A DNA stretch of 64,000 bases from Pseudomonadota bacterium (GCA_039182865.1 JBCDBX010000003.1:1343-65342); one strand, 5' to 3'; positions 33,364-48,454 are shown, counted from the stretch's first letter. Notes: generated by a model from the letters alone, not told the origin. Program-made: numbers and translations.

Positions 33364-36300
33364 TTACTTATAGCTATTCAGAAGACTACGCATTGTATTG
33401 GTATCAAATTTAATACGTAATTTTGCAAATGGTCCATCAGCTGTATATTCGGCACCACTGAAGTCATCGTCCTCAAACCCATCAAAATTATATCCAAGAC
33501 TCACCCAAACATTTTGATAAACATTGACACCTACCGATGGGCCAAATGAATATCTAAAGTTCTCAGAGTTGCTTGAATTCAAAATAGAGGTTTGGAAAGA
33601 AAGGTCAACACGACGATGAATATCATAACGATATCTAAAACCAAGTAATTGAGTAAAACCATCAAACTCATCACCATCGATATCATCAAGCACATATTTG
33701 GCACCCCAATGTATGCCTAATTGATGCAGATCATCAACAGTATAATTTAAGTTAAGATTATTAATTAGTGATCTTGAACGAATATCTAATGAATCACTTA
33801 CATCTTCACTAAATGAAAATTCTAAACGATTTAATATCGTATATGGACTATGGTCAGGTCTAAACGCAAGTGCATATGTCGCATCAGCAGTAACATTATT
33901 GCCACCGCCTTTTGTATCTGTTTCAAATATCTGAGTATCAAACGACATGCCTAAGCCTGTAAACTCTTCGCTATAGAGACCAAACAAGACACCGCGTTGT
34001 ATATCTGTGTCACTGGTACGATACTCCATCCTAGACGCTGCCGACCAATTTGTTTGCACATAATTCGCACCAAGAGAAAGCGCAGTAAAATCACCTGACA
34101 CACTTCCTGATGATAATGGAACGTTGTCATTAAATGGTGTTACACCCTCATCATTCAATGTATCCAATCTGTCAACACTGACATCTAATGACAAATGATC
34201 GTTGTATTGCCAGCCTTGCGTCAAACCCAAATTACTAAACAAGCGTTTTCCATTCTCACCTGATTGCTGTTCTACACTGGTATTAATTTCAGCCTGACTC
34301 CAAGGAATTAAACGTGTTCCAATCCGTGTTGTATTGGTATCCTGATCTTCACCTTGGGTATACTCATGTTCAGTAAATAATTCAGAAATTTCATTTAATT
34401 TATAATCCGCACCTGCAATATAACGTGTAGGATAATCAACAGAGTTGTCTGAGTTTACATCTATCTCGGCATTGGCACGCAAATTAAGTCTATTATCCAT
34501 TAACCTCTTTGCAGCTCCTGCGGTAACGAGTACAGATTCTCTATCTTCCTGTTGTGATAATTCATCTTTTGCATATGCCAAACCGGCAGCAAGACCATAT
34601 CCATTTTTATTATAGTTGAGCTCAACGTCTGCAACCGTACGTTTATTATTGTCAGATAAAACCTCATCACGAAATGCCTGACCATTGACTTCTACTGATT
34701 CATTAACACGATATCTCAGATCTGCACCATATCGTTCAGCACCATCATTGTTCTGACTTTGTTGATCTAAACCAAACCCTTCATCTTGCCTGCGGTAATA
34801 CACCAATGTATTGATTTTTTCTGTGCGGTGTTCTACTTCGGCCAATAACGCATCATTATTTTCATCACCATCTCCTGTATCAACACTACTGCGTGCTGCC
34901 TCTAAACGTACTTGAGTCTGCTCAGAAACGTTATATTCAAAATCTGCGCCAATAAGATCACCATCGGCATCTTCATCGCCCTGAGTAATAGCACTGATTC
35001 CGACTTCTATGCCGCGCTCTTTATCATATAAAGCAGCACGAATTCCGGCAGTTAATTCCTTATCTCCAGAGTTCTCTACTTCATAATCTGCAACAATAAA
35101 AACTGGATTAAAGTTTTGGTCGCGACTTGGGATCGGCTGTTTAAAGAATATCGTGCCATTATTAGTATCAATCGTGTAATCAACAAATTGTGTCAGTTGC
35201 ACATCACTGATAATTATATTGGGCTGAAATCTATCGCGTGTCACAATTGATACCTGCTCACTATTAATCACAATATCATTGTTCGATAACTGATATAGCC
35301 CCGAGGTACCATTCCCTTGAATTTCATCTTGCACAAATCTTTGATCGGTTTCAGACGCAAATGCATTAAAGCCAAATCGATTCCCCTCATATTCTGCTTT
35401 AGCGCCCGTTAAACTTCGTGTATATCTAGAGAGTTCTGTCACATCCATGTCTGTATTAAAATCACCAAATAAAGTATAAAACTGATTCTTCTCAAGTCTT
35501 ACATATAGCTTATCAGAGCTTGCGGCATCAAATTGTTGTTCAGTCGCATCTCCATAAAGCGTGTAATATTCATCTGGTGCGATTGTTTGGAATAACCTGT
35601 CATCTCTCTCGTCATCTCCACGTTCAGAGTCATAAGCCAGTGTCAACAACCATTCACCTTTAACCTGACCTTTGGCATAAAAGGCTAGGCGACCATCCTC
35701 ATAAAAATCTTCTTCAATATTATTATCACTTAAAGCACGCGCATTGCCAGAGACATTGTTATAACCTGTAGACCCCTCTGCAAGTCCAACTAAGATCCAT
35801 TCTTTTTGGACAGCTTGAATCCATGCATCTATAGATTCTTCTCGATCGTCAATAAATAAAAAATCTAGCGTTAGCTTACCGCCTAAAGTTGAAGGTTCAA
35901 TATCGATAAATGCGATACCATCTTGCTCAACTTTATATGTCAATCTACTAGAAGTAAGGCCATTCAAAGGTTGTTTGTCTAGCTCTCTTGTCTCTTGAAG
36001 CGACGTATAACCTTGAGAAAGTCCGTATTCGCCAATGATTTCTGGGCGTGCAGGGTAACCCCATTTGTCGAAAAACTTGACGGCAAGAACAATGGGGTTC
36101 TTACCATCTGCGATCAACCTTGAATATTCCGGAACTAACTGTGCTTTAATAGGCTGTCCAGAATAATGTATTGTTTGAGTAACCTGCTCCAACTGAATAT
36201 CATCTTCGCTATACGTGGTAGCAACAAAAACATTATCACCCTCTACAAGATCAACACCCTTCCAGCGATCAATTAATTTCTTCTTATCAGAACTAGTCGT

Positions 36301-39300
36301 TCTAGAATCAAAATTAAGTGCACTGACTTCTTTACCATTAAGCTCTAATTTTAGTTTTGTATTTACAGCACGCTTAATCTCAATCTGTATCGCGTTGATA
36401 AAAGGATTATAATTATCTCTGGGTGATAACCATTGCAATGAGTCATCCTGCTGATTCAACCATGTGACTGTAAACTCTGCTTCTTCAGCAACTGGCAAAC
36501 TCTCCCTTGGATGTACATAGTCACCAATCAACTCGTGTTTATTTAATAACTCTTGCTCACTCTTGTTGTTAGTGTTTCTGACAAATTTATCATCACCATC
36601 GATGATTATAGTATTCTCGATCACAGGAGATTGTGAGTTCAAGTTGCCCTCATGGTCATAAGTTAGCAAAAACTCTGTTTTATATTCACCATTAGCAAGA
36701 GATGGCATTTTTGCACTCAGTTCTAACACATACGTCCAATCACTGGTTTGTGGCACTCCAAGACTTATATTCAATGTCCCAAATAAGTTTCTCGCTTCAT
36801 AACCACTTTTACCATTCACCTTTATACTATCTTGAATAAATTTAAACTCACTAGGCAATATCACACTCGCATTAATATTACCTAAAGGCTGTTGTATACC
36901 TTGTAGCGTCATCGTATATCTAACTAGATCATTAAGTACTACACTATCAATCTGGGTATGTAATTTTCCTTTTTCTGGTGGTTTTTCTTTTAAGTAAAAA
37001 TTTGAACGCCATAACAATCCTGCATCGATATCCGCAAACTGTGACATCTTTGAACCGGCAGTACGCGTATTTTGCACACATTCTTGTATTTCTAGATGAT
37101 TAGGTATACTACTAGGATCAATTTGAATAACATGTGTCCCTGGCTCTAGCCCTTCAAAGTGGTACATCCCTCTTTGGTCTGTTAATACATATCGGCCATC
37201 TTCTAAAACCAAGCGTATCCCCTCAACGCCTTTCATTGTTGGTATGCCAACGAACTTAACTCTACCCTTGGCTTTTGATTTTTTAACAAATAGTTTTTTA
37301 CTTTCGCTATCTGATGAAGAATTAAATGTGTATATCGTATTAATAATATCGTAATGACTCTCAAATTTAGCTTCTGATTCACTTACTTTTAAATAGGCTT
37401 CAATAACGTACTGACCAGTTTTCTCGTTGCTCACTTTAGTACTAAATGTGAGTCTTATAGAATCTAGCTGTGTATCACTTCCTAAAATATATTTAAGGCT
37501 ACCTGATTGTATAATTGGCTCTGATATTTTCTTGTTATTCAATTCTGAGGAATCTGGAACATAGCTAAGGCCATCTGGTAAGTTGAAATTAACCTCAATT
37601 GGATAATCTAGGTTCGGTAACTTTGAGATGCTTAATTCATTAAGTAATTTATCGCCAACTTTTTCAGTCAACATGTGATAAGTAGCACTCCCATAATCAA
37701 TTTTATTTTCATTTTTACATGTCCCCTCAGTGACGGTACCAATCAAGAAACTCTTTGAAGAAATCAAATCATCTTGTACATCAACGACGGCTTGCGCATC
37801 TCTAGATCTGAACCCAACAGAATCTGTAGCAAATACAGTATTTATAGCATTACCAAACGGAGTACCTGAAGAAACTTCTACAACATATTTAACTGTAACG
37901 GTCTCACCCGATGGGATATCGCCCAATGCAATAGTAATCGAAGTGCCATTATTGGCAATATTAGGATCTGCTTGCTTAACGCTATCGAATTGCAAAGAGT
38001 CTTTTTGATATCTAAAGCCAGTAGGTAGAGAATCTAAAAGATTTACGTCAATAGCTGAATTACTTGAATTGTTGTTAGTGACTGTGATCTGGTACTGCAA
38101 AAAGTCTCCAATGCCGACAACGTCTTTTGAAGCTTGTTTACTAACAAAAAGTACATCACTGATTGGGTCAATAGGAATATCAACATGTAGTGGCGGACCA
38201 ACGACTAATGGAAAATCCAATCCAAATGATGCATTAGCATCTAGAGAAAACGGAGCATTTGGTAATGTTTGTAAGGTTGCGATGCTGACGGTAGATGGAA
38301 TAACAAAATCATCGGCCGTGACTTCAAGTCTATATGTACCCGCTGCAACGAATGGAAACCGATATTCACCCGCAGCAAATGTAAAAGTTGCACCCGAACC
38401 ATCTGTCACATCATTACCGGTGACCATGGTTGAAGGATATGAAATTGTTCCAGCAGGATCTGAAAATACTGTTGCGGGTAAACCTGTTATCGCATCAATC
38501 AATGTGATAGTAAGTCCACTTACAGGCGCACCATTGTCACTGCTGAAGACAATACCGAATGGATCAATAAGTACTCTTTCTGATGCAGCATCAGTTACAT
38601 CAAAAGCATCTATATAATCTATTGTAATCGTATCACCCGATTCAACCGCAAACTGGCAGTCAAATATAGCAATTGGTGTTTCTACTGTTTGGATAAAGCC
38701 AACAAATTCGCCTGTATTATTCCCTGTTTCCATCAACTCAATGACTTCACGGTCATTAGTTGCATCTGAGCTGATGTTAATTACAAGCAGATCTGGAATA
38801 TTTATATCAAAGTTTCTGTTGGCGTCAGTGACCTTGATAAAAATAGGATTGCCGCTGCTAATCGAAGGAGCCGGCAATAAATTAACTGGGTTTGAAATAT
38901 CTATCGTACCTACTAATGGATAAGTTGGATTTGGCAATGGTGTGAATGTGCCTGTGTTTCCAACACTACAACCTGTTGGCGAAACATCACCATTAAGACC
39001 ATCCCCATTTGGTGAAAATTGTAATATCTCAAGAGTGGCGTCACTAAATATTATTGATGTTGTAACATCAACCGTATTGGAATTTCGAGTTTGCGGCGTA
39101 GCAGATACATCATAATTTGCAACCGCAGTGTTAGAAATGACGGTACCAGGTGGTACCGCAAAGAGAGTGTTTGAAGAAGAAATAAACAAAAAAACAGCAC
39201 ACAATAAAAGCAGTAAAGCCTGTTGTACTTTAAAGTATTCAACAGGCTTGATGGCTTTTTTATTTGCCTTCCGCGCACACTCATGACACGGATATTGTCT

Positions 39301-39318
39301 AGTTGCAGTCCTTTGCAT
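33364..39318 (-). CDS. Giant secreted DUF11-domain protein with Ig-like/carboxypeptidase-regulatory-like repeats and a roughly 700-aa C-terminal predicted outer-membrane beta-barrel
   Basis: 1984 aa. Long N-region then hydrophobic core ...ALLLLLCAVFLFISSSNTLFA|VPPGTVISNTA. DUF11-like segment GDFLQYQITVTNNNSSNSAIDVNLLDSLPTGFRY. CarbopepD_reg-like GVEGIRLVLEDGRYVLTDQRGMYHFEGLEPGTH. The C-terminal third is Y/G/D/N-rich with alternating amphipathic strands ending ...FAKLRIKF. Confidence 0.65.
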   Translation of the reverse strand: MQRTATRQYPCHECARKANKKAIKPVEYFKVQQALLLLLCAVFLFISSSNTLFAVPPGTVISNTAVANYDVSATPQTRNSNTVDVTTSIIFSDATLEILQFSPNGDGLNGDVSPTGCSVGNTGTFTPLPNPTYPLVGTIDISNPVNLLPAPSISSGNPIFIKVTDANRNFDINIPDLLVINISSDATNDREVIELMETGNNTGEFVGFIQTVETPIAIFDCQFAVESGDTITIDYIDAFDVTDAASERVLIDPFGIVFSSDNGAPVSGLTITLIDAITGLPATVFSDPAGTISYPSTMVTGNDVTDGSGATFTFAAGEYRFPFVAAGTYRLEVTADDFVIPSTVSIATLQTLPNAPFSLDANASFGLDFPLVVGPPLHVDIPIDPISDVLFVSKQASKDVVGIGDFLQYQITVTNNNSSNSAIDVNLLDSLPTGFRYQKDSLQFDSVKQADPNIANNGTSITIALGDIPSGETVTVKYVVEVSSGTPFGNAINTVFATDSVGFRSRDAQAVVDVQDDLISSKSFLIGTVTEGTCKNENKIDYGSATYHMLTEKVGDKLLNELSISKLPNLDYPIEVNFNLPDGLSYVPDSSELNNKKISEPIIQSGSLKYILGSDTQLDSIRLTFSTKVSNEKTGQYVIEAYLKVSESEAKFESHYDIINTIYTFNSSSDSESKKLFVKKSKAKGRVKFVGIPTMKGVEGIRLVLEDGRYVLTDQRGMYHFEGLEPGTHVIQIDPSSIPNHLEIQECVQNTRTAGSKMSQFADIDAGLLWRSNFYLKEKPPEKGKLHTQIDSVVLNDLVRYTMTLQGIQQPLGNINASVILPSEFKFIQDSIKVNGKSGYEARNLFGTLNISLGVPQTSDWTYVLELSAKMPSLANGEYKTEFLLTYDHEGNLNSQSPVIENTIIIDGDDKFVRNTNNKSEQELLNKHELIGDYVHPRESLPVAEEAEFTVTWLNQQDDSLQWLSPRDNYNPFINAIQIEIKRAVNTKLKLELNGKEVSALNFDSRTTSSDKKKLIDRWKGVDLVEGDNVFVATTYSEDDIQLEQVTQTIHYSGQPIKAQLVPEYSRLIADGKNPIVLAVKFFDKWGYPARPEIIGEYGLSQGYTSLQETRELDKQPLNGLTSSRLTYKVEQDGIAFIDIEPSTLGGKLTLDFLFIDDREESIDAWIQAVQKEWILVGLAEGSTGYNNVSGNARALSDNNIEEDFYEDGRLAFYAKGQVKGEWLLTLAYDSERGDDERDDRLFQTIAPDEYYTLYGDATEQQFDAASSDKLYVRLEKNQFYTLFGDFNTDMDVTELSRYTRSLTGAKAEYEGNRFGFNAFASETDQRFVQDEIQGNGTSGLYQLSNNDIVINSEQVSIVTRDRFQPNIIISDVQLTQFVDYTIDTNNGTIFFKQPIPSRDQNFNPVFIVADYEVENSGDKELTAGIRAALYDKERGIEVGISAITQGDEDADGDLIGADFEYNVSEQTQVRLEAARSSVDTGDGDENNDALLAEVEHRTEKINTLVYYRRQDEGFGLDQQSQNNDGAERYGADLRYRVNESVEVNGQAFRDEVLSDNNKRTVADVELNYNKNGYGLAAGLAYAKDELSQQEDRESVLVTAGAAKRLMDNRLNLRANAEIDVNSDNSVDYPTRYIAGADYKLNEISELFTEHEYTQGEDQDTNTTRIGTRLIPWSQAEINTSVEQQSGENGKRLFSNLGLTQGWQYNDHLSLDVSVDRLDTLNDEGVTPFNDNVPLSSGSVSGDFTALSLGANYVQTNWSAASRMEYRTSDTDIQRGVLFGLYSEEFTGLGMSFDTQIFETDTKGGGNNVTADATYALAFRPDHSPYTILNRLEFSFSEDVSDSLDIRSRSLINNLNLNYTVDDLHQLGIHWGAKYVLDDIDGDEFDGFTQLLGFRYRYDIHRRVDLSFQTSILNSSNSENFRYSFGPSVGVNVYQNVWVSLGYNFDGFEDDDFSGAEYTADGPFAKLRIKFDTNTMRSLLNSYK

Positions 39319-39325
39319 TAATGAG

Positions 39326-39350
39326 ATGCGCGGACTTCATGTCCGCGCAT
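39326..39350 (-). promoter_or_regulatory. GC-rich perfect hairpin in the 5' leader of the giant gene (intercistronic between genes C and D)
   Basis: ATGCGCGGAC-TTCAT-GTCCGCGCAT: 10-bp stem, 5-nt loop, 8 nt upstream of the annotated ATG at 39318. Anomalously GC-rich for this genome. Confidence 0.4.
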
Positions 39351-39380
39351 TCCTAAACTTAGGAGTTGTTACATTATTTA

Positions 39381-40439
39381 CTACTGAATGACTGCATCAA
39401 ATGTAACAGTACACGTGGCACTAGCAGCGATAGTAATAGAATTTACTGTCACTGTATTACCTGCAGATGCATCCACAGCACCAGCACAGTTTGTATCAGT
39501 AATGTCAACACTTGGTAGGCTTAATACAAGTTCAGGATTCGGAACTGTGTCAGAAATACTAACATCTGTAACAGAGGATGAACCCTGATTTTCAATAGCG
39601 ATTGTATAGGTCACTGTTGCACCAGGAACAGCTTTATGATTAACACCATCATTTGTAACGCCTGGAGCACTCGCAGTTGTGGCTACTGTTTTCTGAACGA
39701 TCAGACCAGCAATTGTATATCGCACTTCTGAAGATGATACTAAGCCATCTTCAACCGCATCAGAACTAGCAGTATTAGTAGCTACATCAGTATTTTCACC
39801 ATCTGCAAATACAATCTCCACTGTAGTCGGATCATCAACGCTACCGCCATCATCTGAACCTAATGCAGAGCCTGCGCCATCTGATGCTTCCAGTGTCCAG
39901 TGAACTGCGGCTTCATCACTATTTGTTGAACCTGCTAAAATAGCAAGTGCAAATACTGTTTTTGTTTCATCTTCAAGCAAGTTTACTTCAGTAATGACTG
40001 TTTCAGTGCCCTCAAAAGTTCCATTGCCATCATCTTCATAAAATGTCACTGAAGATAAATCTAAATCGTCACCTGAGCTGAAATCAAGATAATTAAGCAA
40101 AAAATCCTGGGTACCGTTACCTGTATTAGTAACAGTTAAAATCACTAAATCGCCCACGGAGGCAGTCGCACCCGGCGCTGCGGGTGATGCAGTGATTGAC
40201 ATATCGATTAATTCATCGACGAGGAATCTTGTTGCATCATTATCTGCCGCAGTAGAGGGATCATCGGATAGAATTGGTGATTGTGCAGTTCCACCCACTG
40301 AGTAGCTGATGGTGGCCTGATTATCTACAGGTGTAGATTCATCTGTGCCCACCGCAAACGATTGTGTATTTAAGATTAATCCAGATAGGACGAATCCTAT
40401 ACATAGCTTAAATACATTCCTTGTATGTAAAATTTTCAT
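39381..40439 (-). CDS. Secreted two-domain DUF11-like beta-sandwich protein (C)
   Basis: 352 aa with a signal peptide and Thr/Ser/Asp/Gly-rich sequence. C-terminal DUF11-like PGATVTYTIAIENQGSSSVTDVSISDTVPNP. The N-terminus after the signal peptide is related to those of A and D. Confidence 0.6.
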   Translation of the reverse strand: MKILHTRNVFKLCIGFVLSGLILNTQSFAVGTDESTPVDNQATISYSVGGTAQSPILSDDPSTAADNDATRFLVDELIDMSITASPAAPGATASVGDLVILTVTNTGNGTQDFLLNYLDFSSGDDLDLSSVTFYEDDGNGTFEGTETVITEVNLLEDETKTVFALAILAGSTNSDEAAVHWTLEASDGAGSALGSDDGGSVDDPTTVEIVFADGENTDVATNTASSDAVEDGLVSSSEVRYTIAGLIVQKTVATTASAPGVTNDGVNHKAVPGATVTYTIAIENQGSSSVTDVSISDTVPNPELVLSLPSVDITDTNCAGAVDASAGNTVTVNSITIAASATCTVTFDAVIQ

Positions 40440-40474
40440 CTAATGTACTCCTTTACGTTTAAAAATATTCTTAA

Positions 40475-40990
40475 TTATTTAAGAACAACTCTATATTCAA
40501 CGGTCCCTTCATCACCTTTTTCTAATTGGCCACGATAAGTCCATCGTATATTTGTATAGTCCTCCGCTTCGATTGCTCTTTCCTTACCTTGATCATCTTT
40601 CACTTTTAAATTCGCTGTACCGTGAAAAGATTCTCCATTATCAACTGAATACTCAATCACTGTATTCTTACCAGCGGCACTGCCAACTTTAAATATTGTG
40701 AATTGCGGAATTGGATTACTTATCACAATATCTGTCGCTGGTTCTTCACCGCTATATTTGAATGTTGTCGTGTAAATAACTTCATCGCCGGGTACGACTT
40801 TGCCAGCTGGAACTCTTTTGATGACATCATTTCCATTTTTATCTTTAGCCAAGACTTCCATTTCAACAACATTAGTCAAAGCAATTGGCTGAATAGCATC
40901 AGCCATCACTGTATTGATTACGCTTGAAAACAAGCAAATGAGTATTACGTTAATTAATCTCTTACTTTCTAAAATCATATGAATCTCCAA
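40475..40990 (-). CDS. Secreted single-domain DUF11-like protein (B)
   Basis: 171 aa with a signal peptide (…SSVINTVMA|DA) and one DUF11-like domain (PGDEVIYTTTFKYSGEEPATDIVISNPIP). Confidence 0.55.
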   Translation of the reverse strand: MEIHMILESKRLINVILICLFSSVINTVMADAIQPIALTNVVEMEVLAKDKNGNDVIKRVPAGKVVPGDEVIYTTTFKYSGEEPATDIVISNPIPQFTIFKVGSAAGKNTVIEYSVDNGESFHGTANLKVKDDQGKERAIEAEDYTNIRWTYRGQLEKGDEGTVEYRVVLK

Positions 40991-40993
40991 TCT

Positions 40994-42019
40994 TTAGTTA
41001 ATAACGACATTGAATGTAATGGTGTGATTATCCGCATTAGTTAAATCTCCTAAATTTACTGTTATGACATTTGCAGCGATAAAGCCTGCATCAGCATCTA
41101 CACTTGAATCTGTCAATGGAATTCCATTCAAAGTGATACTGCTTGGTTCATAGGTTGTATCTGTAGGTATAGCATCGGTGATGACGACATTTGCAGCTGT
41201 GTCTATACCGCTTGCAACGACATCTAATGAATATTGAATTATTGCGCCCGGGATGGGGCTACATGGAGCTGTGGTACATGACCCTCCACCAGCTGTATCG
41301 TCAATGACTTGTGCGTTTTTAGTAATATTTACATCAATCAATGATGCGACTTCGTATGTCCCTGGGGTATCGACAGATGCTTCAGTTAAACCAACCAAGG
41401 CATCAACACCACCGTCACCCAACCCAACTAAGATAGTCCCAGGTGTTGAACCTGCTGCACCCGCAGTTGTTGCATTAGCAGTTATTTCTATCAGGCCCTC
41501 ATCACCGTCAATAAGCGCTGGAGGAATATCACCAACAATAAAAATTACTTGGCTATCTACACCATTTGCATCAAGTGATACATCATTGAGGGCGGGGATA
41601 TGCTCAACATCGATACCACCCGTATCAAATACGCCATTGTTATTACTATCAATGAAAATTCTTAAATTTGTAGGATCAAAATCATCAGTTCCTATTGGTG
41701 ATGCATCAAATGCAAAAGAAAATTCTTCTATACCATTTCCAATATTAGTAACCAGAAATGTAAGCACTTGATCTAAACTGGAAGTCAAGACAAGAACATT
41801 TGAGGCATCTTGTGAAACTAAGTTTACGTCAATAATTTCTTGCACAGAGAAGACGACTGTATCAGTCGAAGTTTGTGGTGACCCATTCTGGTTATATTCC
41901 ACCGTGACAGTATTACTTATCACTGTGCCGGCAGGAGTTCCTAAGGCATATGCAGCATTATTGATTGCTATTAAAAATAGACTAATATTTATTAGATTCT
42001 GAACTATTGAGTGACGCAT
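40994..42019 (-). CDS. Secreted two-domain DUF11-like beta-sandwich protein (A), first gene of the operon
   Basis: 341 aa. Signal peptide (…NNAAYA|LGTPAGTVISNTVTVEY) and C-terminal DUF11-like domain (PGAIIQYSLDVVASGIDTAANVVITDAIPTDTTY). Confidence 0.6.
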   Translation of the reverse strand: MRHSIVQNLINISLFLIAINNAAYALGTPAGTVISNTVTVEYNQNGSPQTSTDTVVFSVQEIIDVNLVSQDASNVLVLTSSLDQVLTFLVTNIGNGIEEFSFAFDASPIGTDDFDPTNLRIFIDSNNNGVFDTGGIDVEHIPALNDVSLDANGVDSQVIFIVGDIPPALIDGDEGLIEITANATTAGAAGSTPGTILVGLGDGGVDALVGLTEASVDTPGTYEVASLIDVNITKNAQVIDDTAGGGSCTTAPCSPIPGAIIQYSLDVVASGIDTAANVVITDAIPTDTTYEPSSITLNGIPLTDSSVDADAGFIAANVITVNLGDLTNADNHTITFNVVIN

Positions 42020-43249: not shown

Positions 43250-44035
43250 TTAAGTAAATCCTCTTTTCTTTTTTATAAGATCGTAAGCTTTTTGGATATG
43301 CTTTGACTTCTCAGTAGCAACTTGTATCATCTCTTCAGGTAAACCTTTTGAAATTAATTTATCAGGATGATTTTGATGCATTAAGCGGCGGTAAGCTTTC
43401 TTAACTTCATCATTCGTGACATTCTCTTCAACACCTAATAGCTTATATGCATTAACTAAATCAGATTGTGTTGGCTGTTGATAGCTTGTATTTGAGTATT
43501 GGCGTTGCTGTGCAAACAATAAAGCTTCTAATTGTTCTAAAATTGCAACCGGATAACCTAACCGATTGCATATTCTAATAAGGATTTTCTCCTCAGCTGG
43601 ATCTTTTTTTCCATCGGCGTATGCAGCTTGTATTTGAATTTGCAAAAACATATTGATCAATGAAATTTTCCTGCCGCACTCACGACGGAACTGATCTAGA
43701 ACTTCGTCCAAGTTAAAATCATCTTTCTTACCTTCATTGAATAATTCAATGGCAGCTGAGCGTTGGCTGGGATCAAATTTCATTTGTCGAAAAACTTGTT
43801 CCGCCATTTGAATTTCTTGAGGTGATACCTGGCCATCGGCTTTGGCTAAGTGACCCATTACAGAGAATGTTGCAGTGAAGAATGCAACTTGTGTTCGTTC
43901 TTGTGACCCGGGGTCAAAATTATTTTTATTTGCTTTATCGACCTGGTGGCCGAGAACAGCACCTAGCATTGCGCCAAGGGGTCCACCAATTGCAAAACCA
44001 AGACCACCACCAGCTATTTTTCCCCACCAACTCAT
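43250..44035 (-). CDS. djlA: Co-chaperone DjlA (TM anchor, TerB-like domain, C-terminal J domain)
   Basis: N-terminal Gly-rich TM, central TerB-like region, C-terminal J domain (AYKLLGV...EVKKAYRRLMHQNHPDK). Confidence 0.75.
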   Translation of the reverse strand: MSWWGKIAGGGLGFAIGGPLGAMLGAVLGHQVDKANKNNFDPGSQERTQVAFFTATFSVMGHLAKADGQVSPQEIQMAEQVFRQMKFDPSQRSAAIELFNEGKKDDFNLDEVLDQFRRECGRKISLINMFLQIQIQAAYADGKKDPAEEKILIRICNRLGYPVAILEQLEALLFAQQRQYSNTSYQQPTQSDLVNAYKLLGVEENVTNDEVKKAYRRLMHQNHPDKLISKGLPEEMIQVATEKSKHIQKAYDLIKKKRGFT

Positions 44036-44509
44036 AACTTCATCCTTTAGTCCATTATTATATTTTTAATGTTAAGTCCTACGCATAATCATTTGTGCTT
44101 CAGATTGATTTAAAAATCTAAACGCTCCAATATATTAACTCGCTCAAATAGTAAACTTTTTGCACTATTATGGTCTAGCTCAATATTATAGGCCCAAAAT
44201 TATTTATCTATCTTCAGCATAAATAATCTTATGAGTATTAATATAAAGCTAAGCAATTAATCCAAGTAGCAAGACTTTTCTCCACATTATATTTCAGCAG
44301 TTTATATTTGAAATTTAAGCTTTGTTATAACCAATCAGTCCTGCTTTAAATATTTATAATAAATTTATATAGTGTGAATTAATCCTATTTCCACTCCTCG
44401 TGTATAGGTTTTCTTATATCTATTAATCAGACTGAGCGATCATTGCCTCTGAACTGAACTAACTATAGAATGTTACGTTAAAATCACCATTAAATGATAT
44501 ACAAATAAA

Positions 44510-44968
44510 ATGAGACAAGCCCACGCACATAAACAATGTATTACCAATGCGCTCGAGCGTGCTGATCGGATCTGTCTCCAAAATGGGAAAAGACTAACTC
44601 CTACGCGCAAGAGAGTATTAGAATTAATTTGGCAAAGTCATAAACCTATCAAAGCTTATGATTTATTGGCACAGTTAAGTACAGGCGATCATTTAGAAAA
44701 ACCTCCCACCGTATACCGTGCTTTAGATTTTTTATTAGATAACAATTTAATACATAAAATTGAAAGTACCAATAGTTACATTGGTTGTGAATATGAACAT
44801 ACAGAGAATGATAGTAAATTTTTTATTTGCGATATTTGTAATGAGGTCAAAGAGCTTGATGAACCCAAACTAAATAAGACATTAGAAGAAGCTAGCAGCA
44901 AACAGGGGTTTAAACCAAATCAAACAAAAGTTGAAATACATGGCACATGTGCCAAATGTTCTGACTAG
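44510..44968 (+). CDS. zur: Zinc uptake regulator (Fur family)
   Basis: KPPTVYRALDFLLDNNLIHKIESTNSY is near-identical to the E. coli Zur DNA-binding region. C-terminal CDIC...C..C metal site. Confidence 0.8.
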   Translation: MRQAHAHKQCITNALERADRICLQNGKRLTPTRKRVLELIWQSHKPIKAYDLLAQLSTGDHLEKPPTVYRALDFLLDNNLIHKIESTNSYIGCEYEHTENDSKFFICDICNEVKELDEPKLNKTLEEASSKQGFKPNQTKVEIHGTCAKCSD

Positions 44969-44970
44969 TC

Positions 44971-45390
44971 ATGCAGATTTTATTAGATCGTTTTGCGATT
45001 TTACTTTCTGGCTTGTGCGCAATTCATTGTATCGCATTACCTATAATGGCAGCTATCTTACCAATACTATCTACTACCTATCATCATGGAAACCAGTTAC
45101 ATGAATTTTGGTTCCACCAATTCATTCTGTATTTTATAGTTCCTGTAAGCATCATTGCTTTAGTATCTGGCTATCGTTCACATAAGAAATTGCTTCCCAT
45201 AGTGATTGCATCTATTGGCTTATTAATATTATCAGTAACTGCATTATTTATTGACCAATTACTCATGCGTCATGTTATTTCTCATGACGGTGAAATGCTC
45301 ATGACGCTTACAGGAGGAATAATTCATGCAACGGGTCATATTCTGAACTTACAAGCAACTAGGAAGTCACACCAACCATGCAAAGTATAA
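44971..45390 (+). CDS. MerC-like small membrane protein (putative metal transporter)
   Basis: 139 aa, 4 TM, N-terminal LSGLCAIHCIALP cysteine-containing helix. Translationally coupled to zur (3-nt gap). Confidence 0.45.
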   Translation: MQILLDRFAILLSGLCAIHCIALPIMAAILPILSTTYHHGNQLHEFWFHQFILYFIVPVSIIALVSGYRSHKKLLPIVIASIGLLILSVTALFIDQLLMRHVISHDGEMLMTLTGGIIHATGHILNLQATRKSHQPCKV

Positions 45391-45944
45391 AATCTTTTTT
45401 TACTATAGTACTCTTATTACTATCAACGATCCTTATTGCCAGTGAAGATCATCATGATCACGACCATGACCATGGATTTGAACAACATGCAGCCCATGTA
45501 CATGGTCAAGCAACAGCTAACATCTCTTATGAAAATAATATACTCAATATAGCATTTAGCTTTCCAGCTATCGATATTTATGGATTTGAACATGCCGCTA
45601 AAACAAATGAAGAAGTCCAGGCTATAGATAACGCACTTTCTTTGTTTCGTGATAGCAGTAATATATTAGTTATGACACCTGAGTGTGAACATGAATCACA
45701 TGATCACGATCACTCTACTAGTCATGACGATGAGGATGGACACCATGAGCATGAAGAGCTAGAACATAGTGATGTTGAAGTAAGCTACGAATTCAAGTGT
45801 GACACAAAATCACCCATTAAAATTAAATTTGTATTATTCAATAGCTTCACAAGTTTAGAAGAAATTAATGTACAATTTATCTCAGATAATATGCAACAGT
45901 TATTTAATGTAACCTCCAACAACCAGACTATTACAATCAATTAA
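45378..45944 (+). CDS. zrgA: ZrgA-like periplasmic His-rich zinc-binding protein (DUF2796)
   Basis: Signal peptide, then EDHHDHDHDHG... and ECEHESHDHDHSTSHDDEDGHHEHEE His/Asp runs. First gene of a zrgABCD-like unit. Confidence 0.6.
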   Translation: MQSIKSFFTIVLLLLSTILIASEDHHDHDHDHGFEQHAAHVHGQATANISYENNILNIAFSFPAIDIYGFEHAAKTNEEVQAIDNALSLFRDSSNILVMTPECEHESHDHDHSTSHDDEDGHHEHEELEHSDVEVSYEFKCDTKSPIKIKFVLFNSFTSLEEINVQFISDNMQQLFNVTSNNQTITIN

Positions 45945-46633
45945 TGATAGATTCTCAGAAATGTATACAAATTTCTGAACTTTCATTTCGTTGGCCTGAG
46001 AGCGCTTCAGCACTTTTGAATATTCCTAGCCTGTCTATTACTCAAGGCGAATCTATATTTATACAAGGTAGCAGTGGTAGTGGCAAATCCACATTACTTA
46101 ATTTAATTACGGGCGTACTTCTACCAAATAAAGGAAATATAACCATCCTAGGTTCAAACCTGAATGATCAAAATCATAATGATCAATTTCGCGTGGATCA
46201 TTTTGGCATCATTTTTCAACAATTTAACCTAATCCCATATCTTAATGTCTTTGAAAATATTACATTACCTCTTTCTTTTTCGATGCGACGAAAAACCAGA
46301 CTAGAAATAGCACATAAATCACTTAAAGCAGAAGCCACGCGGTTACTCGATTCCTTGAGCTTAGTAGGCGATAACATTCAACAACGTAATGTAACCGAAT
46401 TAAGTACTGGTCAGCAGCAGCGTGTTGCTGTTGCGCGAGCATTAATTGGCTCCCCAGAGATTATAATTGCAGATGAACCTACATCAGCTCTTGACGCAGA
46501 TGCTAAACAGGATTTTCTAGATTTATTGTTTCAAGAAAGTAAGCATTCTCATAGCACCCTTATTTTTGTCAGCCATGATCAAACCCTCTCTAATAAGTTT
46601 GACCGCATACTCTCTATGAGTGAATATAAATAA
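45944..46633 (+). CDS. ABC transporter ATP-binding protein (ZrgB-like)
   Basis: Walker A GSSGSGKST, signature LSTGQQQRVAVARAL, Walker B IIIADEPTSALD. Confidence 0.8.
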   Translation: MIDSQKCIQISELSFRWPESASALLNIPSLSITQGESIFIQGSSGSGKSTLLNLITGVLLPNKGNITILGSNLNDQNHNDQFRVDHFGIIFQQFNLIPYLNVFENITLPLSFSMRRKTRLEIAHKSLKAEATRLLDSLSLVGDNIQQRNVTELSTGQQQRVAVARALIGSPEIIIADEPTSALDADAKQDFLDLLFQESKHSHSTLIFVSHDQTLSNKFDRILSMSEYK

Positions 46634-47912
46634 TAATCTGATTATGCAATTAAAATTGCTCAGTCTCGCAATCAAAAGCTTAAGATTTAGGAAATTCTCA
46701 GTTGGCCTGACAATTTTTTCACTCGCGATCAGTATTATGCTGTTATTTGGGGTGGATACAATTCGTGTTCAGACAAAGTCTAATTTTGTTAATACTATCT
46801 CTGGTACAGACTTAATTGTCGGCTCTCGTAGCGGATCTGTGCAATTACTTCTATATACGGTTTTTCATATTGGTAATGCCACCAATAATGTCTCCTGGCA
46901 AAGTTATGAGAAGATCATTAAACATCCCCGTGTTGCATGGACCATTCCAATTTCACTAGGGGATTCACACAAAGGCTATCGTGTGGTTGGAACGACTCAA
47001 GATTATTTTACTCATTATCGCTACCATAGAAATAAGCAACTTGAGTTAAAAGATGGCCAACAATTCGAAAATTTGTTTGAGGCTGTTATTGGTGCAAATG
47101 TTGCCAAAGAACTCAGCTACATACTTGGAGATGAGATAATATTAGCTCATGGCATGGGTAATGTTAATCTAGCCCAACACAAAAACCTGCCATTCTCTAT
47201 CACAGGTATTTTAGAGCCCACTGCCTCTCCCGTTGATAATAGTATTTTTATCTCTTTACCTAGTTTAGAGGCGATCCATATTGGTTGGGAATTTGGTGTT
47301 GCAACTAATACAACGCTTACCGCCGATGATATTAAAGATGATGATCCACGCTTAGAGACCAAGTCCATTACCGCATTTTTCTTGGGCTTAAAAAGCAAGC
47401 ATGATGTATTCAGCATCCAGCGCGCGATAAATGATTATAAACAAGAACCACTGCTTGCGATCATACCTGGTGTCGCTTTGCTAGAACTATGGAAAGTCAT
47501 CGGCGTTGTAGAGACAATATTACTGCTTATAGCTGGACTAGTCGTCATCACAGGATTATTTGGCATGCTAGCAATTATACTGACCAATCTTAATTCGCGT
47601 AGAAGAGAAATTGCAATATTACGTTCAGTTGGTGCATCACCCCTAGCTATTTTATTTATGATGATTATTGAAACCGAATTATTAGTCATCATTGGGATAT
47701 TAATCGGTTTAGGCCTAATGTACTCCTCTTTAATTATCCTGAATTCAGTACTTCAGGACACCATTGGCCTTACGATTGAACTTATGCCTCCTTCACTTTT
47801 CCAATGGACATTATTAGGTAGTATTTTATTGGCTGGATTCATCATTTCATTCATTCCAGCATTTAGCGCTTATCGAAAAACATTACAAGATGGTTTATCT
47901 ATTCGCTCATGA
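46620..47912 (+). CDS. ABC transporter permease, FtsX/MacB-like (ZrgC-like)
   Basis: 430 aa with an N-terminal TM, a large periplasmic domain and C-terminal FtsX-type 3-TM bundle. Confidence 0.7.
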   Translation: MNINNNLIMQLKLLSLAIKSLRFRKFSVGLTIFSLAISIMLLFGVDTIRVQTKSNFVNTISGTDLIVGSRSGSVQLLLYTVFHIGNATNNVSWQSYEKIIKHPRVAWTIPISLGDSHKGYRVVGTTQDYFTHYRYHRNKQLELKDGQQFENLFEAVIGANVAKELSYILGDEIILAHGMGNVNLAQHKNLPFSITGILEPTASPVDNSIFISLPSLEAIHIGWEFGVATNTTLTADDIKDDDPRLETKSITAFFLGLKSKHDVFSIQRAINDYKQEPLLAIIPGVALLELWKVIGVVETILLLIAGLVVITGLFGMLAIILTNLNSRRREIAILRSVGASPLAILFMMIIETELLVIIGILIGLGLMYSSLIILNSVLQDTIGLTIELMPPSLFQWTLLGSILLAGFIISFIPAFSAYRKTLQDGLSIRS

Positions 47913-48454
47913 TCAATCTATTAAGATCTTTATTGCTTATATTATTACTCACTAGCGTAGGGCTAGCCTCACAGCCTCGCATTGTCGAATGGGATGAACT
48001 GATGCCGCCTGGCTACCTCGACTCTCTGATTGAACTCATGTCAGAAAGTAGTTTTAGCATTACCAATATTTTTAGTTTTGATGACGATACTGAAGAAGCA
48101 CAGAATGCTTATGAACAAATGCAAGACTTACTTAATTCGGCTCCCATAGTGCCAGAGTTAAATAATCAAGATGTCAAAATTGCCGGGTTTGTTGTACCTC
48201 TAGACTTCGACTTTGATACAGAAACTTTTCAGAGTTTTTTGCTCGTCCCTTACTTTGGTGCATGTATTCACACACCACCGCCACCTTCAAATCAAATTGT
48301 TTATGTCACCTCTGATAAAAGACTAAATCAAGAGTTATTAGATTATGCAGTATGGGCATCAGGCAAACTCAGCACCGAAAGCAAAGAAAATCTATATGGT
48401 GTTGCCGGTTACTCGATGGAGAATGCAACATTAGAAGAATATATAGAAGACTAA
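47909..48454 (+). CDS. DUF3299-like periplasmic protein (ZrgD-like)
   Basis: 181 aa with a signal peptide, overlapping the permease stop. Last gene of the zinc cluster. Confidence 0.45.
   Translation: MINLLRSLLLILLLTSVGLASQPRIVEWDELMPPGYLDSLIELMSESSFSITNIFSFDDDTEEAQNAYEQMQDLLNSAPIVPELNNQDVKIAGFVVPLDFDFDTETFQSFLLVPYFGACIHTPPPPSNQIVYVTSDKRLNQELLDYAVWASGKLSTESKENLYGVAGYSMENATLEEYIED

Follow-up and report, generated by a model that had tools for sequence, protein, structure and literature searches.

A shared N-terminal hairpin and C-terminally truncated DUF11 domains in a conserved four-gene operon: a candidate split-domain surface fibre of diderm bacteria

The window, i.e. the whole stretch of DNA that was analysed (64,000 nucleotides from a Pseudomonadota bacterium, GCA_039182865.1 JBCDBX010000003.1:1343-65342), contains on its minus strand four genes, which we refer to as A, B, C and D. 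The genes, and the parts of them with which our analysis is concerned, are located at the following positions, counted from the first letter of the window:

40994..42019, minus strand: gene A, encoding a putative shaft subunit of 341 aa that has both donor and acceptor; signal peptide at residues 1-25, N-terminal module at 26-60, middle Ig-like domain at 61-226, DUF11 domain at 227-341
41840..41944, minus strand: N-terminal module of A (LGTPAGTVISNTVTVEYNQNGSPQTSTDTVVFSVQ), residues 26-60
41944..41849, minus strand: string of A quoted in an earlier note on this DNA, residues 26-57
40997..41341, minus strand: C-terminal DUF11 domain of A, the putative acceptor, residues 227-341, ending in HTITFNVVIN and the stop codon
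40475..40990, minus strand: gene B, 171 aa, a signal peptide and a single DUF11-type domain that ends at strand F
39381..40439, minus strand: gene C, 352 aa, paralogous to A and built in the same way; signal peptide at residues 1-29, module from residue 30, C-terminal DUF11 domain ending in TVTFDAVIQ and the stop codon
40352 downwards, minus strand: module of C, from residue 30
40352..40263, minus strand: quoted string of C, residues 30-59
39326..39350, minus strand: G+C-rich stem-loop of 10 bp in the gap from the stop codon of C to the start codon of D
33364..39318, minus strand: gene D, 1984 aa, a putative anchor and possibly a pore; long signal peptide, module, about 1200 aa of Ig-like domains, C-terminal outer-membrane β-barrel region
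39064..39156, minus strand: N-terminal module, and quoted string, of D (VPPGTVISNTAVANYDVSATPQTRNSNTVDV), residues 55-85
38148..37783, minus strand: complete DUF11 domain of D, residues 391-512, profile positions 3-98
35451..33367, minus strand: barrel region of D, about 690 aa, with a weak OMP_b-brl match

Gene B starts 3 nt after gene A, and the stem-loop between C and D has a folding energy of -24 kcal/mol (z = -4.3), with none of 200 shuffles folding as well; the scan for promoters and terminators returned nothing over the shuffle expectation. The flanking ORFs, judged by reading their sequences, appear unrelated, and no further assembly factor is encoded among those next to the operon. 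The signal peptides and their cleavage sites, which were read by eye, end in AYA/L (A), VMA/D (B), SFA/V (C) and LFA/V (D), with no cysteine at position +1. All four proteins are members of the DUF11/TIGR01451 family (34.9 bits for A, 32.7 for B, 38.2 for C and 50.1 for D, against a cut-off of 24); on the Pfam profile PF01345, C and D score above the cut-off, while A and B fall just below it because their domains are truncated. The only complete DUF11 domain among the four is that of D, where residues 395-488 also score 25.4 bits on TIGR04226 (cut-off 30). The sole match of the C-terminal 695 residues of D is to OMP_b-brl, at a weak 27.1 bits that lie below the cut-off; the usher profile PF00577 does not match D, no Pfam or NCBIfam match to the autotransporter barrel PF03797 or to an intimin/invasin barrel was obtained, and a profile of 28 orthologues of the barrel found no relatives in the PDB, where sequence searches with A and with D gave no match either. 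A-D match no known fibre-system family (chaperone, usher, sortase), and we have found no description of the A-B-C-D operon in the literature.

The earlier note had claimed that the mature N-termini of A, C and D share a β-strand motif placed right after the predicted signal-peptidase sites, and that B lacks it. This description holds: the three quoted strings are present in the window sequence as given, they directly follow the cleavage sites listed above, and a module of about 30 residues is common to A, C and D and missing from B, both in the window and in 160 related loci. The range that had been assigned to the motif, 39100-41960, covers it but omits the last 12 codons of the module of D. 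The module HMM, for which we used solely the N-terminal 34 residues of 254 mature A- and C-type proteins, matches the mature N-terminus of the window D with 25.4 bits (i-Evalue 5e-8) as well as 65 D orthologues, and has no other significant match. Across the 160 loci the module is conserved, occurring in 253 of 258 A/C-type proteins and in none of 141 B orthologues, the best of which scores 2.7 bits. Judged by these profile comparisons, the sharing of the module among A, C and D is far beyond chance. Between the module and the DUF11 domain, D does not align with A; the module is homologous in the three proteins, although the domains that follow it are not. Asn36 (numbering of A) is 95% conserved on the donor strand of the A/C proteins, and an asparagine occupies the same position in all 77 D modules found in the 160 loci.

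The gene order A-B-C-D is conserved in the 160 related loci, which are distributed over at least 8 diderm phyla, the hosts being Gamma-, Alpha- and Deltaproteobacteria, Nitrospirota, Eisenbacteria, Krumholzibacteriota, Spirochaetes and Fibrobacteres, with cultured strains of Sphingopyxis, Parasphingorhabdus and Marinobacterium among them. Each cassette always contains one member with the module and no truncated domain (D) and one with the truncated domain and no module (B), and the orthologues of the third gene, C, keep both the module and the abrupt C-terminal end. A has at least 281 homologues; the A-family profile has 1559 matches, counted as 50%-identity clusters at E < 1e-30, which include unrelated giant tandem-DUF11 proteins. 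An ORF in locus L006 that had been considered as an A-B fusion keeps a remnant of the signal peptide of B, and is probably the product of a frameshift or an assembly artefact.

In A, B and C alike, the C-terminal DUF11 domain breaks off exactly behind strand F. The Pfam DUF11 profile, which has 114 positions, is covered only to about position 82 in A and C and to 63 in B, and none of the three domains extends through the G strand, as a complete DUF11 domain does. The end falls at the same alignment column in 241 of 255 A/C proteins; among the B orthologues, 140 of 141 terminate precisely where the B profile does. When the N-terminal module is appended to the truncated domain, the DUF11 match reaches positions 109-110 (only 98 with the module of C), while a shuffled peptide, used as the control, extends it only to position 92, with a loss of 3 bits. 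In hhalign, the truncated domain aligned with the complete DUF11 domain of D stops at strand F, and the alignment runs without a gap into the module once this is appended. The largest gains in profile score are those of B: with the donor peptide appended, it gains 4.4 bits on DUF11 and 6 bits on DUF7927, and passes from no match to 23.9 bits on DUF7619.

The sequence that is missing from these C-termini can be read from uninterrupted DUF11 arrays. In 552 repeats of 35 giant tandem-DUF11 proteins, selected as matches of the A-family domain 2 profile that reach to within 7 positions of its end or further and hence include strand F, this strand is followed by the consensus ..P.G..I.N.A.V.Y, the register of which is exactly that of the mature N-terminus GTPAGTVISNTVTVEY; the equivalent residues in A are G27…P29.G31..I34.N36.V38.V40.Y42. 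Within one to a few residues of the cleavage site, the mature A, C and D open with what comes after strand F in the repeats. Conversely, 252 of 716 module-HMM matches in these arrays fall between -3 and +6 residues relative to a repeat end, an interval that accounts for 4% of the positions, and 145 of the 252 are located at offset +1, where about 3 are expected. Given this exact register, we read the motif as the detached F-G loop and G strand of a split DUF11 domain, with a further strand behind them. Domains of the B type rarely extend to the profile end in the giant proteins.

Two further comparisons were discarded. The module had been compared with the G strand of the complete DUF11 domain of D itself, but the hhalign gain of 2.7 was matched by 4 of 100 column permutations, several unrelated β segments score equally well, and direct profile-profile alignment (E = 0.024) prefers the following strand. 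The domain that precedes an internal hairpin in the 1335-aa protein P0129 had been considered as B-like, but the B HMM does not match it and hhalign gives E = 0.016. As a separate observation, in P0129, which lies on a contig of 4 kb, the internal hairpin is directly preceded, without a linker, by a strand (YFELSFIGHIL/VGTPAGS, the slash marking the junction).

We propose, with a probability that we put at roughly 0.55, that the motif is the missing end of a split DUF11 domain and that the subunits complement one another head-to-tail through the hairpin, forming a barrel-anchored fibre. Once exported by Sec, a subunit would insert its N-terminal hairpin beside strand F of another subunit's C-terminal domain, and would thus recreate the junction that exists between consecutive domains of single-chain "beads on a string" DUF11 proteins. 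Since it lacks a truncated acceptor domain, D would be a donor only and would serve as the base, its large C-terminal barrel fixing it in the outer membrane; A and C, which carry both donor and acceptor, would form the shaft; B, with a domain that ends at strand F and no module, would be an acceptor only, acting either as the distal cap or as a chaperone that keeps the donor hairpins capped in the periplasm until assembly. These counts of donors and acceptors fit a chain. As no chaperone or usher is present, we speculate that the barrel of D may double as the passage through the outer membrane. The donor-strand idea of the earlier note is hence strengthened by the truncated domains, the exact register and the donor and acceptor counts, while insertion in trans is a step that we infer.

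In structure prediction, the putative donor element differs in shape from the single N-terminal strand that the earlier note had envisaged. In the AlphaFold2 model of A (pLDDT 92.8, pTM 0.73, signal peptide included), residues 33-44 and 47-58 form a two-stranded β-hairpin with pLDDT 97, rather than a single floppy strand, and its register is confirmed by covariation (z = 6.3). Strand 1 of the hairpin bears the sole fully conserved face (I34, N36, A/V38, V40, Y/F42), the matching face of strand 2 being polar and variable towards the tip, which fits a groove for a single strand. Domain 2, i.e. the C-terminal domain of A, has 8 strands in the model, so that, with the 2 strands of the hairpin, the count fits the 10 strands per complete DUF11 domain that have been described, in a beads-on-a-string arrangement, for an AlphaFold3 model in a published preprint. 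Foldseek searches of the PDB with both AlphaFold2 models (the second is described below) returned generic tandem Ig-like matches only, with TM scores of 0.2-0.43, among them integrin, complement MG domains, Gram-positive pilins and the self-complemented CsuA/B (TM 0.33-0.40).

That the monomer of A is modelled confidently throughout also favours a different reading, in which the hairpin of A or C completes the C-terminal domain of its own chain, giving compact monomers with a circularly permuted order and no polymer, pairing between chains being limited, if it occurs, to B with the orphan hairpin of D. The evidence for a split domain is silent on whether complementation occurs within or between chains; some couplings between domains 1 and 2 (G187-N235, at rank 30, is one) point to more extensive contact than two domains touching end to end would have; and there is a precedent in the tafi, predicted donor-strand fibres whose monomers, on the basis of AlphaFold models, have been proposed to be closed and to open when activated. 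We nevertheless consider closure within the chain unlikely. In every locus, D is a donor without an acceptor and B an acceptor without a donor, which implies at least one pairing between chains; the homology with uninterrupted arrays places the hairpin between domains n and n+1, not n+2; and couplings link the hairpin base to the far end of domain 1. Moreover, when A was modelled as residues 27-226, with the acceptor domain deleted, the hairpin kept a pLDDT of 93-97 (pTM 0.87), so that the acceptor is unnecessary for its order in the AlphaFold2 model, which is not simply docking the hairpin in its own acceptor domain.

This same order with domain 1 alone favours, on the other hand, a reading in which the hairpin is an ordinary element, i.e. 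the first two strands, or cap, of the N-terminal domain, conserved by descent and core packing, while the truncated domain is a self-stable 8-stranded variant of DUF11 and strands are not exchanged. Mean-field DCA, run at two alignment depths (Neff 178 and 309), finds the known strand pairs again with z = 6-8, and the strongest couplings of the hairpin (Neff 309) connect its base with loops of domain 1 (G27-N152 at rank 5, A30-G96 at rank 17). The earlier note had named packing of the strand within its own chain as the outcome that would speak against strand exchange, and the order of the isolated hairpin and the coupling of its base to domain 1 go part of the way towards it. The robust own-chain couplings are, however, those of the base only, strands 33-58 pairing just with each other. 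Neither Neff yields a significant second partner for strand 1: the best candidates are a parallel pairing with 272-283 (z = 3.2) and an antiparallel one with 117-123 (z = 3.3), and the isolated couplings P48-I284 and V40-P257 match neither of these geometries. The covariation at Neff 309 also contains no significant ladder between strand 1 and strand F of domain 2; since partners on different proteins would dilute covariation, the missing ladder is weak evidence against complementation. In addition, the module of D precedes a domain that has no detectable homology to domain 1, the module agrees in exact register with the F-G loop and G strand seen in uninterrupted repeats, and this reading leaves the exact, universal truncation after strand F in three paralogous families unaccounted for; we therefore regard it as quite improbable.

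Least probable to us is that the module is a recognition tag, a periplasmic signal read by B as a holder or by the barrel region of D that targets A, C and D for export or assembly without forming a permanent joint: B lacks the module, is encoded right behind A, a position that suggests chaperone-like amounts rather than one cap per fibre, shows the largest gain from the appended donor peptide and has no other assembly factor beside it in the neighbourhood, but the truncated acceptor domains of A and C themselves would be unexplained, the module is unlike any known export signal, and the idea overlaps with the fibre proposal, B as an "inverse chaperone" being compatible with both.

A wider interpretation of the fibre proposal is held more tentatively, and we think it rather less likely to be right than wrong: the cassette as a whole would represent an unrecognised and widespread class of diderm surface fibres, built by polymerisation of split DUF11 domains through two-stranded hairpins without chaperone, usher or sortase, in which B would be an "inverse chaperone" or a cap and D would combine the roles of terminator, anchor and outer-membrane passage. 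As part of this joint interpretation we have also speculated that the joint might be locked by Lys234, Asp282 and Asn36 in the manner of SpyTag/SpyCatcher. Lys234 and Asp282, both located in the C-terminal domain of A, are essentially invariant among the A/C proteins, but they are general hallmarks of DUF11, present in 171 and 198, respectively, of 200 uninterrupted repeats; these repeats show no preferential co-occurrence of the lysine with the asparagine, and the analysis of conservation and co-occurrence gave no evidence of a covalent (isopeptide) bond at the joint.

If the proposed mechanism holds, A-D would constitute a new family of Gram-negative surface fibres that assemble by strand complementation without chaperone-usher machinery, present in environmental Gamma-, Alpha- and Deltaproteobacteria, Nitrospirota, Spirochaetes, Fibrobacteres and candidate phyla; a large set of proteins annotated as "hypothetical" or "DUF11" would acquire a function, and the operon would be an example of a beads-on-a-string adhesin broken into self-assembling pieces. 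The acceptor domain and its 30-residue tag would make a natural split-domain pair of possible use in protein engineering, and the mechanism would be testable in the cultured Sphingopyxis, Parasphingorhabdus and Marinobacterium hosts.

The earlier note had likened the motif to the donor strands of chaperone-usher and type V pili, a likeness that is no more than an analogy; a chaperone, an usher, a lipoprotein signal and a protease-processing feature are all absent here. The parallels to the chaperone-usher pili (type 1, P, archaic Csu/CupE) are a terminal Ig-like domain (A, B and C) that lacks its G strand and has strand F at the C-terminus, a putative donor element at the mature N-terminus (A, C and D), and an operon that includes an outer-membrane β-barrel protein; the subunit without a donor, FimH/PapG-like, resembles B, and the base that only donates, PapH/FimI-like, resembles D, so that the polarity of those pili is mirrored. 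This pilin-like architecture is analogous at the level of sequence and profile; A and C have no homology to pilins, the Foldseek matches being of the generic Ig type. The differences are that A-D contain no PapD-like chaperone (PF00345/PF02753) or usher domain and have no sequence similarity to those systems, that the subunits here have two domains, that a hairpin of two strands, anchored to the domain behind it, takes the place of the free donor strand, that D, the barrel protein, includes a donor of its own as well as about 1200 aa of Ig-like domains, and that B, at the position of the chaperone gene, could only accept a strand and not donate one. The barrel region of D is C-terminal, whereas the intimin/invasin barrel of inverse autotransporters (type Ve) is N-terminal to the Ig domains, and at about 690 aa it is far larger than the 12-strand barrel of an autotransporter.

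The type V pili of Bacteroidia (FimA/Mfa1) likewise polymerise by strand exchange and have an anchor subunit, but their pilins are lipoprotein precursors that an Arg-specific protease processes and whose donor strand is C-terminal, whereas A, C and D have AxA-type signal peptides without a lipobox cysteine and a conserved donor element at the N-terminus. Sortase-assembled pili differ in that the sequence here contains neither an LPXTG motif nor a sortase. Closer in mechanism are the chaperone-free donor-strand fibres, i.e. archaeal threads (Saci_0406), TasA/TapA, archaeal bundling pili, cannulae and haloarchaeal tafi, where subunits exported by Sec or Tat complete the β-sandwich of a neighbour with an N-terminal strand in the absence of chaperone and usher, and where the operons include a cap or initiator protein; those fibres belong to archaea and monoderms, have unrelated folds and lack an outer-membrane barrel partner, while A-D have the DUF11 fold, occur in diderm hosts and are known from sequence and prediction alone.

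With the engineered SpyTag/SpyCatcher pair, derived by splitting a CnaB domain, A-D share a β-sandwich that lacks its last strand and would be completed by a peptide in trans, as well as an invariant lysine (K234) and aspartate (D282) in the acceptor and an asparagine (N36) in the donor strand, the difference being the covalent bond, for which A-D offer no evidence. Finally, the tandem DUF11 proteins, such as the grappling-hook-like GhlA of Litorilinea and the giant LPXTG DUF11 adhesins, belong to the same domain family as A-D, and their chain passes from strand F through ..P.G..I.N.A.V.Y into the next domain in the same register as the proposed junction of C- and N-termini; in those proteins the junction is covalently continuous, while in A-D the chain is interrupted exactly where the F-G loop begins, and its pieces are spread over four genes.

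The module shared by proteins A, C and D, i.e. their conserved mature N-terminus of about 30 residues, is encoded in an operon of four genes that are arranged head to tail, all on the minus strand:

42019..40994, minus strand: gene A, 341 aa
40990..40475, minus strand: gene B, 171 aa
40439..39381, minus strand: gene C, 352 aa
39318..33364, minus strand: gene D, 1984 aa

Protein A is annotated as 'hypothetical protein' in the source metagenome-assembled genome (Pseudomonadota), and DUF11/TIGR01451 Ig-like domains are common to A, B, C and D (Pfam/NCBIfam profile matches). A G+C-rich, 10-bp stem-loop (39326-39350, minus strand; AUGCGCGGAC-AUGAA-GUCCGCGCAU) is located between the C stop and the D start, its 3' end 7 nt upstream of the D start codon, with a free energy of -24 kcal/mol (z = -4.3 against shuffles); a canonical terminator is ruled out by the missing T-run, and by analogy with the intercistronic hairpins of other pilus operons, the stem-loop could set the ratio of the subunits to D. 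No chaperone, usher, sortase or peptidase gene is found near the operon, the flanking genes being unrelated as read by sequence; by eye, the neighbours at 43250-45390 and 45378-48454 read as a DjlA-type J-domain protein, a Zur/Fur-family regulator, a His-rich periplasmic protein and a metal-uptake-type ABC transporter, which appear to be a zinc-homeostasis cluster with no relation to A-D.

The order A-B-C-D is found again in 160 loci (80 from genomes, 80 from metagenomes) of Gamma-, Alpha- (Sphingomonadales) and Deltaproteobacteria, Myxococcota, Nitrospirota, Eisenbacteria, Krumholzibacteriota, Spirochaetes and Fibrobacteres; since A and C are paralogues, the third gene is more A-like by score in some loci. 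No description of this operon was found in the literature searched. At one locus (L006:10001-11455), A and B occur in a single 484-aa ORF with a 12-residue remnant of the B signal peptide between them, probably through a frameshift or an assembly artefact of that metagenome-assembled genome.

The mature N-termini follow typical signal peptides (A, AYA/LGTPAGTVISN; C, SFA/VGTDESTPVDN; D, LFA/VPPGTVISN; the slash marks cleavage), and the strings that the earlier note quoted are present exactly at these places; its statement that B lacks the motif also holds, as the mature start of B (VMA/DAIQP…) has nothing resembling the module, which is carried by 0/141 B proteins. A profile HMM of the first 34 mature residues only, built from 254 A- and C-type proteins, matches the mature N-terminus of D in the window (25.4 bits, i-Evalue 5e-8) and the N-termini of 65 D orthologues, with no other significant match within those proteins of ~2000 residues; because a model of A and C alone finds the D N-termini, the likeness of the three modules is, at the level of sequence, beyond chance. 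Comparison of the homologous loci has confirmed the conservation: the module occurs in 253 of 258 A/C-type proteins across genome and metagenome loci, and all 77 modules detected in D proteins have Asn at the position of N36 (A numbering).

In A, B and C, the C-terminal DUF11 domain ends right after strand F (A, …ITFNVVIN-stop; B, …VEYRVVLK-stop; C, …VTFDAVIQ-stop), and the end position is identical in 241/255 A/C proteins and 140/141 B proteins. On the Pfam DUF11 profile (114 positions), the match ends at about position 82 for A and C and at position 63 for B alone; with the module from the N-terminus of A or D appended, it reaches 109-110, while a shuffled peptide brings it to position 92 only, at -3 bits. 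The profile of the complete DUF11 domain of D aligns with the A-family domain to strand F only, and continues without gaps into the appended module. Within the A-family domain, K234 (41318-41320) is invariant in 254/255 proteins and D282 (41174-41176) in 255/255; by covariation, the two face each other directly on the adjacent parallel strands A2/C2 (register +48, z = 4.9) and could be joined by a salt bridge that is conserved or by a Lys-Asp cross-link within the domain. Their equivalents are present in 171/200 and 198/200 uninterrupted DUF11 repeats.

An exhaustive profile search has returned 35 giant proteins built from uninterrupted DUF11 repeats in tandem, whose matches to the A-family C-terminal domain extend to its end or close to it. 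The consensus that follows strand F in 552 such repeats, ..P.G..I.N.A.V.Y, corresponds position for position to G27-T-P29-A-G31-T-V-I34-S-N36-T-V38-T-V40-E-Y42 of A; of the 716 module-HMM matches in these proteins, 252 fall at -3 to +6 residues from a repeat end, a zone of 4% of positions, with 145 of the 252 at offset +1 (~3 expected by chance). As the C-termini are cut after strand F and the module is in register with the post-F residues of the repeats, the motif is, on sequence grounds, the F-G loop and G strand of a DUF11 domain. The chain is broken precisely where the F-G loop starts, mature A having only L26 before G27. A second strand (A residues 47-58) then makes a hairpin (AlphaFold2; covariation z = 6.3), and the eight strands that AlphaFold2 gives the C-terminal domain of A, together with the two of the hairpin, make ten, as in complete DUF11 domains, which a preprint models with AlphaFold3 as a beads-on-a-string array of ten-stranded units. 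The conserved face is complete on hairpin strand 1 only, the equivalent face of strand 2 being polar and variable towards the tip; this fits a strand that slots into a groove and speaks for complementation between chains.

We propose, with a probability of roughly 0.55, that A-D as a whole form a chain: Sec export and signal-peptide cleavage would expose the hairpin, which would complete the C-terminal domain of another subunit, with D, whose barrel would anchor it in the outer membrane, as the base, A and C as the shaft, and B as the cap at the distal, acceptor-only end or as a periplasmic holder of donor hairpins. That B lies right behind A, with a gap of 3 nt, suits a protein made at amounts near those of A. 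The tally of donors and acceptors would close only between chains, since at every locus a donor without a truncated domain is found in D, the converse in B, and the two together in A and C; a head-to-tail A/C chain would also rebuild the junction between domains n and n+1, where the hairpin sits in uninterrupted arrays. The module, moreover, behaves like a portable unit rather than a piece of one domain, as the domain that follows it in D has no detectable homology to that in A and C.

The best-surviving alternative, improbable in our estimate, is closure within one chain to give monomers. AlphaFold2 predicts full-length A with confidence (pLDDT 92.8, hairpin 97), and the case that the earlier note set against its own reading, a strand packed within its own chain, is partly borne out: in residues 27-226, with the acceptor deleted and the same alignment, the hairpin stays at pLDDT 93-97 (pTM 0.87), so the model does not order it by docking into its own C-terminal domain. 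In the covariation analysis (Neff 309), in which the known strand pairs score z = 6-8, there is no significant ladder between the hairpin and strand F of that domain; the hairpin base is coupled with loops that lie at the N-terminal end of domain 1, the middle Ig-like domain of A (G27-N152, rank 5; A30-G96, rank 17), and the body (33-58) has robust couplings with itself only. These results would fit a rigid finger, anchored by its base on domain 1, whose partners are on other proteins, in which case the covariation signal would be diluted. Domain 1 itself has a conserved D-x-N-x-N-G-x-x-D loop (residues 124-132, DSNNNGVFD, 41623-41649) with strong couplings (D124-D132, D124-F160, N127-T133) and a faint Pfam GEVED match, which looks like a calcium-binding loop.

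An ordinary N-terminal cap without strand exchange, still less probable, would agree with the anchored base. Least favoured is the idea that B or D recognises the module as a tag. The donor-strand reading in the earlier note is partly supported: the motif is a strand detached from an incomplete fold, and its insertion between chains is inferred. Should the chain model be true, A-D would represent a new variant of the surface fibres built by strand complementation, one with a wide phylogenetic spread.

Protein D also bears domains of the carboxypeptidase-regulatory-like and SdrD-B-like types. The only match of its ~690-residue C-terminal region is a weak one to a generic OMP beta-barrel model, with no relative in PDB sequence searches; we speculate that this large barrel might also pass subunits across the outer membrane. 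The best-conserved stretch of the C-terminal region, a segment of ~100 residues, lies just before the barrel (residues ~1335-1440, 35000-35320; GDGTSGLYRLS…NSE.V.IETRDRF…DYDIDY..GTLFFK.PV.SRD…FIVVDYE, with many invariant residues), has no match in Pfam or the PDB and may serve as a plug or for docking. Residues 1-54 of the longest ORF (39157-39318) place an unusually long charged pre-sequence of ~30 residues ahead of the hydrophobic core, and long pre-sequences likewise open many D orthologues when their longest ORF is taken; the signal peptide could be of the extended type known from some autotransporters, or the start codon could have been called wrongly.

A 1335-aa single-chain relative (P0129, L161:98-4105, Logan SRR32390733) has, in order, an N-terminal hairpin, domain 1, InlB-B-repeat and chitobiase-C, an unmatched domain weakly similar to B (hhalign E = 0.016), a second hairpin, another domain 1 and domain 2 (the C-terminal DUF11 domain of A) in truncated form. 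The last strand of the unmatched domain directly enters the second hairpin (YFELSFIGHIL/VGTPAGS), and the protein may be a fusion that joins an acceptor-type domain to a hairpin in one chain.

Marker features of the known donor-strand and pilus families were looked for in A-D and not found: Pfam/NCBIfam profiles give no PapD-like chaperone or usher, the proteins show no lipoprotein/protease processing and no LPXTG motif, and no sequence similarity to chaperone-usher or other donor-strand fibre families was found. K234, D282 and N36, all conserved, are reminiscent of the residue triad in split domains that form isopeptide bonds; K and D are, however, general DUF11 hallmarks, and a K/N co-occurrence test was negative. 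Donor-strand systems are defined by a strand that is detached from an incomplete fold, and the motif has that anatomy; chaperone-usher pili follow the same logic, with a C-terminal strand F, an N-terminal donor, a tip without a donor and a terminator that donates, and A-D resemble the chaperone-free donor-strand fibres (archaeal threads, TasA, tafi). By homology, the closest relatives are single-chain tandem DUF11 adhesins, and A-D look like such an adhesin split into self-assembling pieces.
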